From Octopus sinensis (lineage: Eukaryota): a stretch of 64,000 nucleotides of DNA. The stretch is taken from assembly GCF_006345805.1 (NCBI RefSeq), contig NC_043025.1:620001-684000 (forward strand). Direction: 5' to 3'. Positions within the stretch are counted from its first letter, which is position 1. Every line of letters starts with the position of its first letter. Positions 35,541 to 39,600 of the stretch are shown here, one piece after another. A model generated the notes under the pieces. The model did no database searches and was not told the origin of the DNA. It was given only the letters and a program-made list of their open reading frames with translations. The position numbers and the translations under genes were made by a program.

Positions 35541-35868
35541 GACACACATATATACATATATATATATATATGTATTATATATATATATATATATAATATA
35601 CATATAATATATATATCTATATATATATAATATATATATATATATATATATAATAATATATATATATATATATATATATATATAATATATATATATATAT
35701 ATATATATATATAATATACCAATTAAGGACTGAACACGAAAAGTGGACAGTCAACATGCTAGATAAGACGTCAAATCGCCATTCTCCACAAAAAGTCTAT
35801 GTTCTCAGATCAAACTCAACCAAACCAAAACAATAAACAAGTGAAAAATATACGAAATAAATATTTAC

Positions 35869-35931
35869 CCATGTACTAAATTCAGTTTCGGCTGTTTTTC
35901 CGCAAGAAAAGTGCAGCCATCATCAGCATGG
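35869..35931 (-). ncRNA. Type I hammerhead ribozyme
   Basis: Reverse complement CCATG-CTGATGA-T-GGCTG..CAGCC-GAAA-CTGAATTTAG-TA-CATGG. Confidence 0.83.
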
Positions 35932-36628
35932 TCCCATATAAAATGTAATTTGCTGTACTAAATGCCAACACGATACCGAAATAACACGTGCATGGAGTAC
36001 GGCCTATTACATTTGAAATATATATTTCAAATGTCTTTATTTTGGCGCGATGAGACCCGAGAAAACTAGCCTGCAGCTAATAGTTAGCAGCAGTTAATTT
36101 ATCGGTTAGAGAACAAATATTTATATAAAATTAAATTAAGGGTAAAAATTGATATTTATCAATTAGAACCAGTGGTCTAGCATATTAAAGAAAGAATCCG
36201 AAGATTAAAATATTGTTTATTGTTTTGGTTTGGTGTTGAGTTTGATCTGAGAACATAGACTTTTTGTGGAGAATGGCGATTTGACGTCTATATCTAGCAT
36301 GTTGACTGTCCACTTTTCGTGTTCAGTGCTTAATTGGTATATATAAATATTTTAATCTTCGGATTCTTTCTTTAATATGCTAGACCACTGGTTCTAATTG
36401 ATAAATATCAATTTTTACCCTTAATTTAATTTTATATAAATATTTGTTCTCTAACCGATAAATTAACTGCTGCTAACTATTAGCTGCAGGCTAGTTTTCT
36501 CGGGTCTCATCGCGCCAAAATAAAGACATTTGAAATATATATTTCAAATGTAATAGGCCGTACTCCATGCACGCGTTATTTCGGTATCGTGTTGGCATTT
36601 AGTACAGCAAATTACATTTTATATGGGA

Positions 36629-36693
36629 CCATGCTGATGATGGCTGCACTTTTCCTGCGGAAAATAACAGCCGAAACTGAATTTAGTACATGG
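36629..36693 (+). ncRNA. Type I hammerhead ribozyme
   Basis: Helix I CCATG/CATGG, core CTGATGA (36634) and GAAA (36673), helix II GGCTG/CAGCC extended by TTTTC/GAAAA, predicted cleavage triplet GTA at 36686..36688. Confidence 0.85.
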
Positions 36694-39600
36694 GTAAATA
36701 TTTTTTCGTATATTTTTCACTTGTTTATTGTTTTGGTTTGGTGTTGAGTTTGATCTGAGAACATAGACTTTTTGTGGAGAATGGCGATTTGACGTCTATA
36801 TCTAGCATGTTGACTGTCCACTTTTCGTGTTCAGTCCTTAATTGGTATATATAAATATTTTAATCTTCGGATTCTTTCTTTAATATGCTAGACCACTGGT
36901 TCTAATTGATAAATATCAATTTTTACCCTTAATTTAATTTTATATATATATATATATATATATATATATATATATTAGCGGTTCGGCAAAATGGACCGAT
37001 AGAATAAGTACTGGGCTTACAAATAATAAGTCCCGGGGTTGATTTGCTCGACTAAAGGCGGTGCTCCAGCATGGCCGCAGTCAAATGACTGAAACAAGTG
37101 AAAGATTTAAAAGTGTATTTTATATATATATATATATATATATGGCATCTGTATTTCTAATTATTTATTTCGGTTTGAAAAGTTTCAGTCAGCAGTTTAG
37201 ATGATTGGCGGTGGAAGTGGAAGAGTTTGAAATGAGAGAGTGGGGAGAGGGAGCGATAGAAGAGAGAGAGGGGAAAGAAGAGGAGGAGAGTTGATGTGTA
37301 CGATTGTGAGTGTGAGTTGTGTGTCTGTGTGTGTGATGCAATTAGATACACAACCCTGCCTAGCTTTTCTTTATATGAAACTGAAGGGAATATCACATTA
37401 CGATTGCATTAATGACATAATTTTATTGTAAAGAAGTGAGTGAAAAGTTTAGCCGGAAAAAATTCCAATAATAATATTATAATAATAATAATAATATTAT
37501 AATAATATAATAATAATAATAATAATAATAATATAATAATAATAATAATATTAATATATTTTTTTTTATTTATTTATTTATTTTTTATGTATTAGACATT
37601 CACTAGTACAACACCAAAAAAAAATAAAAAACCCAGATATATGGCACAGAACTTCCAACCTGTTGCCTCTTGAGGTCTCTGGGTGAGACTTGGAGCCAAC
37701 TTGTACGGACATAAAGCAAAAGTCAAACATAGAATAATAATAATAATAATAATAATAATAAAAATAATAATATAATAATACTATTAATAATAATATAATA
37801 ATATATATATTAATATTAATAATAAAAGATAATAATACAATAATAATAATAAAAATAATAATAATAATTATTATTATTATTATTATTAGTATTATTATCA
37901 TTATCATTATTATTATTAATATTATTATTATTATTATTATTATTATTATTATAATAATTATAATTATTTTTATAATAATAATTATTATAATAATAATGAT
38001 AATTATTATTATTATTATTACTATTATTATTAATATTAGTATTATTATCATTATCATTATTATTATTATTATTAGTATTATTATTATTTTTATTATTATT
38101 ATTATTATTATTATTATTATTATTATTATTATTTGCCAATAGGGTCGGCATATGGGAGAAGATACAGTAGAAAATGCGGTGAGAGCTGGCAGAATCTTCA
38201 GTACGTCGAGCGAAATGCTTAGCGGTATTTCTTCTGCCGTTTCCTTCTGAGTTCAAATTCCCTCGAGGTCGACTTTGCCTTTCATCCTTTCGGGGTTGAT
38301 TAAAGAAGTACCAGTTACGCACTGTGGTCGATATAATCGACTTACTCCGTTTGTCTGTCCTTGTTTGTCCTCTCTGTGTTTAGCCCCTTGTGGGTAGTAA
38401 AGAAACAGGATACAGTAGACATGGACAGTGGGGATTTCACGCAGAGACAACGAGTACACAGTTAAAAGATTAACAATGATATCTGACAAAAGAATATAAC
38501 AATGAAATTTTGTAATAGGTGCAGTTAATCCCCTGGAGTTGGCTCAGGTACCCACACCCCAATCCTGAACCACTCGACGCTTCGAGAGCATCTGGGAAGG
38601 GCACTCTCCTCCCTTTCAAATTCACGAGCCCACAGGTACGTTACTAGAGTAGGTCCTCTCACACGTACCATTTTCTCTGTTCATCCACCTTTTGGCAAAT
38701 GTACTGGGAGGCAGCACTTCACTCTGCACCCTCATCTTCCTTTCCAAAGGAAATTAAAAAAATATGACCCGTGATTGGCCGTAGAGAAAACTCTCTGCCT
38801 TTAGTCAGTTTAACCTGGTCCGCAATACAGCCACTTTCGCTACTGCTATTAGACAGAAGTTAATTGCCTGACCTTCCAGACTGATGGAAAGTGGCTGATC
38901 GATCTTCACTACGGACTCGGCCGATAGATAGAAACTGCCTACACTTAATAACAGCTTTTCAACATAACTCCACAAGTCAGTAATGCAAGGACACTGACGA
39001 GTGCGTGCAGAACGCTTTCATCGCTCTGCGCATATCTCGGGTAGGTCGGTCAGACAGCAATTCCGTGCTTGTAGAGTTTATCTCGATCCGGCAGTGCCCC
39101 CCGATAGCACTGCAAAGCAAGGGACTTCTAGAAGTTATCCATTATCCCCGTCTTGAAAGTCCTCCTCAACAGACTGGTTAGTTCAATTTTGTCAACGCCT
39201 AGCGTCTCTCCAAGTGCTTCATCGCACATTCCCTCCACTAACCCTCCATAGAACTTCAGAGTGGATTTTCCACTGATCGCATTGCCCACCTGGTAGAGGA
39301 CAGTGAGTGCCTAGCAACATTCCAGATGCCAGTAACCCTTCCTCGGTCTCTTCTTGACCCACGACTGCAGCTTACTCAAGGAGATGAGATGTGGAAAAGC
39401 CTGTTTGACAAACGATGACCACACCTGTTCACCGTTTACGCAGAATATTTGGAGGTGCCGCAGCCCCAGTTCATGTCTTCCACAGCATGCCCAGTGTTCC
39501 GGAAATCGGAAAGCGAAAGCACAAAAACGAAAATTTGAAAAGGGAAAAGTAAAAACAGCATTTAAGAGTTCTCCTTTTCAGACCTTGAATTATAAGGCTA

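Follow-up and report, generated by a model that had tools for sequence, protein, structure and literature searches.

Introduction

Animal retrozymes of the non-LTR (long terminal repeat) type are short, non-coding, low-GC units with one type I hammerhead ribozyme each, which occur as monomers to multimers, have a weak self-complementary helix III and are proposed to be mobilized by Penelope-like elements (PLEs) (PMC7229834; Li 2026, bioRxiv 10.64898/2026.07.22.740005). Li 2026 proposes retrozymes to be non-autonomous PLE derivatives and treats the integration of animal retrozymes as still hypothetical. PLEs are inserted with a head-to-head, inverted and 5'-truncated copy, with partial tandems and with a tail at one end; they target microsatellites and carry a hammerhead upstream of their 3' end (PMC3846280, PMC8557442). 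How their inverted and tandem insertions are made was called undefined by Craig 2021 (PMC8557442). Frangieh 2024 (PMC11167929) placed the tail between two internal start sites of reverse transcription and reported that a PLE cuts and extends both target strands; in the element studied, PAc (Poseidon of Anolis), the two tail-delimiting starts lie downstream of the hammerhead, the targets are AT-rich and the protein is a predicted dimer. Here we analyze a stretch of 64,000 nucleotides from Octopus sinensis (contig NC_043025.1, positions 620,001 to 684,000; hereafter the window), in which a 508-bp hammerhead repeat without open reading frame (ORF) interrupts a (TA)n tract. The features listed for retrozymes and PLEs are found again in this family, and the two starts, the two-strand priming and the AT-rich targets of PAc have probable counterparts in it. 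We regard the repeat as probably a young, non-coding hammerhead retrozyme of several hundred copies, likely inserted into (TA)n in trans by a PLE of the Neptune type, with both cut strands primed on one template at two fixed sites about 93 nt apart.

Two-armed insertions with paired ends

Unit coordinates were set so that q1 corresponds to window position 36213. Self-comparison of the window gave a direct repeat (36213–36443 and 36721–36951) with a spacing of 508 bp and 99% identity, and the direct arm as a whole (36213–36946, plus strand) comprises 1.45 units. The inverted arm (35714–36213) agrees with 36346–36850 in 497 of 499 aligned bases, with four small internal gaps, and is one unit plus about 5 nt long (q134 round to q133/138). 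Both ends of the insertion lie at internal TA runs, TATATATA (q126–133) and TATATA (q221–226). No ORF was found in the element, whose longest stop-to-stop frame measures 87 amino acids (aa), and a tRNA search of it gave no result. The same insertion with the same flanks is present on a second contig (L002, C11275), which speaks against an assembly artefact. The paralogous TA tracts at about 25840–25920 and 52545–52635 are empty; since their flanks are 97–99% (left) and 92–93% (right) identical to those of the window locus, the simplest reading of the sequences is that the insertion is younger than the segmental duplication. We thereby confirm the 508-bp period, the inverted copy, the missing ORF and the empty paralogous tracts that a first-pass annotation of the window had reported, and support its reading of an insertion after the duplication. 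Its description as an inverted plus tandem array holds for the two orientations; the locus has just 1.45 direct and 1.0 inverted units, with one hammerhead per strand.

A search of the genome (2.72 Gb) with the unit returned 1,444 candidates, of which the best 40 have 93–99% identity and are spread over many contigs. Exact 19-mers matched 518 times for the hammerhead core and 1,493 times for the 3' end, with 0 matches of the reversed controls. The 213 Mb of contig C1 contain 48 loci, a density that would give about 600 in the whole genome, and the young multi-copy element of the annotation is thus borne out by several hundred insertions. They fall into two subfamilies that differ by about 6%. 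The plan and the tail motifs recur in non-coding sister families at a greater distance (60–83% identity), and 1,902 matches were counted for a 15-mer taken from the tails of the latter. A run with a different species label (X16, organism C) yields contigs that cover the unit in all 30 bins. In two runs taken, as a guess, to be RNA, contigs cover 30/30 (X1) and 24/30 bins (X2), which is uninformative on transcription, ends and circles. No description of the 508-bp family was found in the open literature; Repbase and Dfam lie outside this scope, and the family may be catalogued there already.

Architecture was determined in 87 position-ordered loci, that is, all loci among the first 100 listed matches of each 19-mer. 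The 30 best-hit loci, which had been selected for length, were excluded from all counts, and L074 (empty neighbour stretch), L259 (complex) and a small palindromic extra match in L258 were dropped. Two arms are present in 70 of the 87 loci, without exception head to head (−/+) and with their 3' ends pointing outward into (TA)n; 16 loci are single-armed (9 tailed, 7 tail-less) and one is complex. In 66 of the 70 two-armed loci one arm ends at q126–133 and the other at q221–226, leaving a tail of about 93 nt, the stretch between the two end sites, at one end only. The remaining four have one odd end each, and use of the same end site twice was not found (0/70). Lengths range from about 150 bp to 8.7 kb through 5' truncation, most insertions being short stumps. 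A third TA run of equal quality (q323–330, ATATATAT) does not terminate any arm among the 152 canonical and 4 odd-ended ones. Because this equally good run is never an end, the ends are fixed by position and not by microhomology alone. Ends at TATATA and priming at (TA)n, as annotated, therefore stand in so far as the ends do lie in TA runs within (TA)n; they are two fixed, paired sites and not any TATATA.

The same pairing rule was found in nine two-armed loci of a 534-bp sister family (one odd, two cut by the locus edge). An autonomous element with reverse transcriptase (RT) and GIY-YIG domains (L156) also has the head-to-head layout with tail and no tail in (TA)n, its tail measuring 38 nt. 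A head-to-head 5'-truncated inverted copy, a tail at one end and an AT-rich or microsatellite target, the marks of PLE-type insertion, are all present in the octopus family, and we consider PLE-driven insertion very likely. A target-site duplication, if present, would be masked by the (TA)n repeats on either side.

Short insertions mostly stop, in both arms, 95–140 nt upstream of the first start site, at q1–45 of the unit (36213–36257). Close to this zone, and downstream of a GTAAAT that directly follows the hammerhead, the sequence is U-rich and contains several AG dinucleotides; candidate causes are an RNA 5' end, a protein footprint or a splicing-related process. The 534-bp sister hammerhead family (L148:6264-7368, L174-L203) forms arrays of many units with a tail of about 115 nt, and further sister families are represented by L079, L153, L174, L175, L264 and L268. 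Near-identical locus pairs on different contigs or adjacent duplicated segments (L006/L014, L148/L149, L001/L002) are alleles or assembly duplications.

The hammerhead ribozyme

A rule-based motif search allowing an extra U detected type I hammerhead motifs at 36629–36693 (+) and 35931–35869 (−), exactly where the first-pass annotation had put them. The motif consists of stem I (CCATG/CATGG), the core CTGATGA, one extra U, an extended stem II (GGCTG/CAGCC), GAAA, a short stem III and a GTA triplet. Its fold is part of the minimum free energy structure of the whole unit (z −4.4), and the stability of the isolated motif is not unusual (z −1.5). The Rfam search suggested in the annotation, with Hammerhead_1, gave no hammerhead match at the gathering score and none among the 13 matches at E≤10. 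Covariation across copies, whose absence was named there among the refuting outcomes, is present: over 35 copies the 20 hammerhead pairs are kept in 98% of cells, four pairs are altered on both sides, and the covariation score was reached by 0 of 500 shuffles, a control inflated by the relatedness of the sequences; slid controls drop to 30–44% paired. In sister families stems I and II are replaced wholesale with pairing kept. By motif, fold and covariation each unit carries a type I hammerhead motif, which the Rfam models do not detect, and the short non-coding unit occurs in tandem repeats, as in retrozymes.

The stem III strand forms no stable hairpin, has a predicted self-duplex of −11 kcal/mol and retains its self-complementarity in the common variants. 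Self-complementary stem III is the pattern of hammerheads acting as dimers (PMC7229834, PMC7761336), and modelling suggests that those of the octopus family likely do so too. Among 48 hammerhead-bearing loci, 15 have 2–17 hammerheads on the same strand, and judging from their sequence these tandem loci are likely the sources. The window locus is a dead-end product, unable to release a monomer because it has one hammerhead per strand. Li 2026 takes at least two consecutive hammerhead units as the sign of an 'active' locus; these are lacking in the window and present at other loci of the family.

A 17-unit single-strand array (L073:470-9131, C1 near 190.07 Mb) with variants in scattered subsets of its units is a candidate source locus; higher-order periodicity is not clear in it. 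A second, unrelated type I hammerhead-like motif with stem III of the CATGTG/CATATG type lies on the minus strand of a duplicated segment at window positions 49454 and 32542. Similar motifs in L144, L149, L027, L075 and L078 suggest another hammerhead repeat family.

Search for a partner enzyme

The genome contains 5,029 GIY-YIG candidates, including intact RT + GIY-YIG ORFs of 775–781 aa with a CxxxxCxxC linker, which by eye, following the scheme of Arkhipova quoted in PMC8557442, we take to be of the Neptune type. Several RT + GIY-YIG families end, by eye, in (TA)n about 100–200 nt past a hammerhead-like motif. The unit itself contains no RT + GIY-YIG ORF of the kind that characterizes autonomous PLEs. 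No PLE ORF contiguous with the 5' end of an arm was found in 79 + 39 stretches, and upstream of the hammerhead every long arm enters the previous unit, never an ORF. In the loci checked the unit was not seen as the terminus of a coding PLE, the outcome named in the annotation as speaking for an ordinary fragment. We infer the Penelope-like partner enzyme from the signature of the insertions.

Several candidates were rejected as partner. Matches of 61–80% in L153, L148, L149 and L134 are sister non-coding elements or nearby AT-rich stretches. Three matches at E=0.006 (L155, L157, L170) are AT-rich and were dismissed on the sequence of L157 and L170, and the PLE fragments flanking L080, L085, L086, L093, L095, L100, L177, L248 and L258 are not contiguous with an arm 5' end. 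In the dominant Neptune-type family (L146:1174-4877, L150) an upstream ORF of 479 aa overlaps the 781-aa RT/GIY-YIG frame, and the long 3' region has repeated CCAAT/TGACGTC motifs; the motif search found no canonical hammerhead in this family.

Proposed mechanism and competing explanations

We propose that multi-unit loci would be transcribed and that hammerheads, likely as dimers, would cut out monomers, which may be ligated to circles. The tail region would be the binding site of a PLE protein, which would nick a (TA)n tract on both strands; of the two reverse transcriptions, one would start at about q226 and the other at about q133. Both would run 5'-ward, often over the ribozyme site and through several units, and the ends of the complementary DNAs (cDNAs) would be joined. 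The parts of this scheme that are established by the genomic copies themselves are the copy number, the head-to-head arms, the 3' ends in (TA)n, the strict pairing of tailed and tail-less ends, the variable 5' truncation, junctions of the end-joining type, a single lineage and the lack of an attached ORF.

Several observations weigh against this reading. Both arms stop within 20 nt of one template position in 21 of 66 loci (5.4 expected; 0 of 20,000 permutations), the shared stops lying mostly 95–140 nt upstream of the first start site, and the likeness of the arms may be partly due to gene conversion. Among long arms, 5' ends are not in excess at the ribozyme cut site (3 observed, 2.4 expected), so that nothing shows cleavage shaping the template. 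Stops at whole-unit lengths are in modest excess among tail-less arms and not in excess among tailed arms (p 0.33), and in L073 (the 17-unit array), L066 and L100 variants are common to subsets of units, which indicates local amplification or a mixed template. The covariation consists of few independent changes among related copies, and Li 2026 reports cleavage in just 1 of 9 retrozyme dimers assayed. Finally, homology to the unit is absent from the 59 of 5,029 GIY-YIG places inspected (62 stretches), in contrast to 21 Xenopus cases of a homologous PLE pseudo-LTR (pLTR) in Li 2026.

The coincident stops could mean that the inverted arm is synthesized on a single cDNA, or on an antisense template as Arkhipova 2013 proposed, after this has folded back on itself, with the endonuclease trimming one end at the internal TATATA and thereby creating the asymmetry of the tail. 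Several of these stops are at local palindromes, variants are common to both arms, and self-priming with resolution by the endonuclease was favoured by Arkhipova 2013 (PMC3846280) and Craig 2021 (PMC8557442). A shared template end or block explains the coincidence equally well. The tail-less arm reaches more than 20 nt beyond the tailed arm in 21 of 66 loci, and in 17 of these (hand count) neither arm is able to contain the other. Since a copied arm would be contained in its source, both arms of these 17 loci must have been copied from a template and not from each other. The junctions, with overlaps of 0–5 nt or short templated inserts, are typical of end-joining, which we infer as their origin, and a PLE starts reverse transcription at both tail ends in vitro (PMC11167929). 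Fold-back is therefore unlikely as the general explanation and may account for part of the short loci; that both arms are RNA-templated in at least part of the loci is likely. By sequence distance, both arms of a locus also derive from one template lineage: they differ from each other by 0.8%, compared with 1.8–2.2% for different loci within a subfamily. Of 561 triplet comparisons, 432 place an arm closer to its own partner, 59 speak against this and 70 are ties; counted by locus, the partner is closer in 28 of 31. The two subfamilies are mixed in 0 of 34 loci, which may also reflect activity at different times. The permuted inverted copy of the first-pass annotation is present; twin priming, with this copy as the second cDNA, explains it better than a separate permuted insertion.

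For the template step, the only one in which it differs from our proposal, a rival account takes linear multimeric read-through transcripts of tandem arrays as template, without cleavage or circle and with the hammerhead as an inherited passenger. It fits the missing pile-up, the variants shared by subsets of units, the loci with 2–17 same-strand hammerheads as possible sources, and the fact that PAc needs no hammerhead in vitro (PMC11167929). Long arms run through the predicted cut site (q476/477), either a single time or repeatedly, meaning that the template was uncut or religated there. In L065, L078 and L108, however, 5, 6 and 2 non-majority variants occur in all 6–7 passes of both arms, and the passes have just 2–4 internal differences, as a single-unit bottleneck would produce. 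Stops at −12 to +47 nt from a whole-unit length were found in 11 of 36 long tail-less arms, against 3.8 expected (scan-corrected p 0.027; the inverted arm of the window is outside this sample), and the ribozyme structure is kept through compensatory change. We give linear multimers a substantial chance, clearly short of an even one, and a circular monomer comes close to even as the usual template. The circular template, one of the two forms named in the annotation, receives modest support from the tail-less arms and shared variants and none from the tailed arms.

It is very improbable that the insertions are ordinary 3' stumps, or pLTRs, of a coding PLE with tandem arrays produced by later unequal crossing-over. 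Their anatomy equals that of autonomous PLE ends, most of them are short, and the inspected share of the GIY-YIG places is small; nevertheless, long arms run into the previous unit and never into an ORF, and sister families at 60–80% identity keep the non-coding unit-length plan, which means that the lineage has long persisted without an ORF. A non-autonomous DNA transposon, such as a miniature inverted-repeat (MITE) or foldback element with terminal inverted repeats and TA preference, would also have inverted ends in TA-rich DNA. The asymmetric ends with a tail at one of them, the range of lengths by 5' truncation, the single-armed loci and the tandem units argue against it; together with an assembly artefact, which the second contig contradicts, we hold it to be extremely unlikely.

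Features and surroundings of the window

The window consists of repeat-rich duplicated DNA with retroelement fragments. Tandem paralogous segments are 91–93% identical (25886–29223 to 36941–40345, and 30029–35652 to 46842–52638), and a 2.3-kb palindrome at 53416–55716 surrounds an RT fragment of a retroelement.

Table 1. Coordinates of the insertion, its parts and the empty sites in the window.
Feature	Position	Strand	Basis
Left part of (TA)n target tract	35548..35713	.	Sequence; empty paralogues are one tract of about 95–110 bp
Inverted 'B' arm without tail, about 5 nt longer than one unit, 3' end outward into (TA)n	35714..36213	-	Sequence comparison
Inverted-arm hammerhead motif of type I, with cleavage predicted between 35874 and 35873	35869..35931	-	Motif search, fold; cut placed by the hammerhead consensus
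Junction at which the two 5'-truncated arms meet head to head, overlapping by 1–2 nt	36212..36214	.	Sequence comparison
Full 508-bp unit (q1–508) of direct, tailed 'A' arm	36213..36720	+	Sequence comparison
TATATATA at q126–133, first fixed 3'-end site (inferred start of reverse transcription); repeated 36846–36853	36338..36345	+	Arm ends across loci
TATATA at q221–226, second fixed 3'-end site (inferred start of reverse transcription); repeated 36941–36946, the end of the window insertion	36433..36438	+	Arm ends across loci
Internal ATATATAT (q323–330), palindrome loop, no 3' end in loci examined	36535..36542	+	Arm ends across loci
Long predicted hairpin upstream of hammerhead	36541..36623	+	Fold of 36515–36625, z −3.5; core kept in alignment, little covariation
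Direct-arm hammerhead motif of type I and of the dimer type, in which the stem III strand is self-complementary and an additional U separates A9 from stem II; cleavage predicted after the GTA triplet at 36688	36629..36693	+	Motif search, fold, covariation
Partial second unit (q1–226) of direct arm	36721..36946	+	Direct repeat
Tail of about 93 nt, at one end only; CTAG(R)CCACT and ACCCTT motifs common to sister families	36854..36946	+	Locus and family comparison
Right part of (TA)n target tract	36947..36976	.	Sequence
Paralogous empty (TA)n site	25838..25920	.	Sequence comparison
Paralogous empty (TA)n site	52542..52636	.	Sequence comparison

Discussion

The element appears to act like the pLTR-tail RNA of a PLE without the ORF and, as far as sequence can tell, has the testable features of non-LTR retrozymes at the level of the family. 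It adds a new family to a known kind of element, retrozymes and their link to PLEs being already in print. With 508 bp the unit is above the 150–450 bp given by Cervera & de la Pena 2020 (PMC7229834) and within the 51–972 bp of Li 2026. The octopus insertions are mostly head-to-head and two-armed with a fixed tail in (TA)n, whereas the word 'inverted' is absent from the accessible text of PMC7229834. Tail motifs are conserved across the sister families; animal retrozymes, according to the review PMC7761336, have no conserved motif pointing to the partner.

From PLEs the family differs by the lack of an RT/GIY-YIG ORF, by the nearly obligatory pairing of ends (66/70) and by a tail of about 93 nt (about 115 nt in the sister family) versus 30–40 nt (PMC3846280, PMC8557442). 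PAc is autonomous, and its starts lie in an AC-rich stem-loop without homology to the target and show no strand difference in vitro (PMC11167929); in the octopus unit the two putative start sites are short TA runs, one of each being used per insertion. Chlamys PLEs such as MRC1 (Craig 2021, PMC8557442) are likewise non-autonomous, with pLTRs and multicopy head-to-tail insertions. Their 3' end resembles that of autonomous families, and canonical hammerheads are missing from these elements, in contrast to the octopus unit, which has a hammerhead and for which no coding relative was found. In the open literature we found no paper joining 'Penelope' with 'twin priming' in the present sense.

What is new here is the long tail, the conservation of tail motifs over sister families without ORF and the counts favouring twin priming on one template. 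The counts that separate the models are the 66 of 70 pairs of tail and no tail, the 17 loci beyond the reach of fold-back and the single template lineage. The 508-nt RNA, with its two mapped (inferred) start sites, is a ready substrate for in vitro work. A more far-reaching possibility, which we rate as rather unlikely, is that a long-lived, ORF-less lineage of ribozyme-made RNA circles with a conserved tail signal recruits a dimer of Penelope RT, whose two subunits would start at the two fixed sites on one circular monomer and roll around it. If true, this would explain the tandem arrays of retrozymes as well as the inverted pLTR and tail of all PLEs in one mechanism, and the octopus genome would be a natural record of hundreds of such insertion events.

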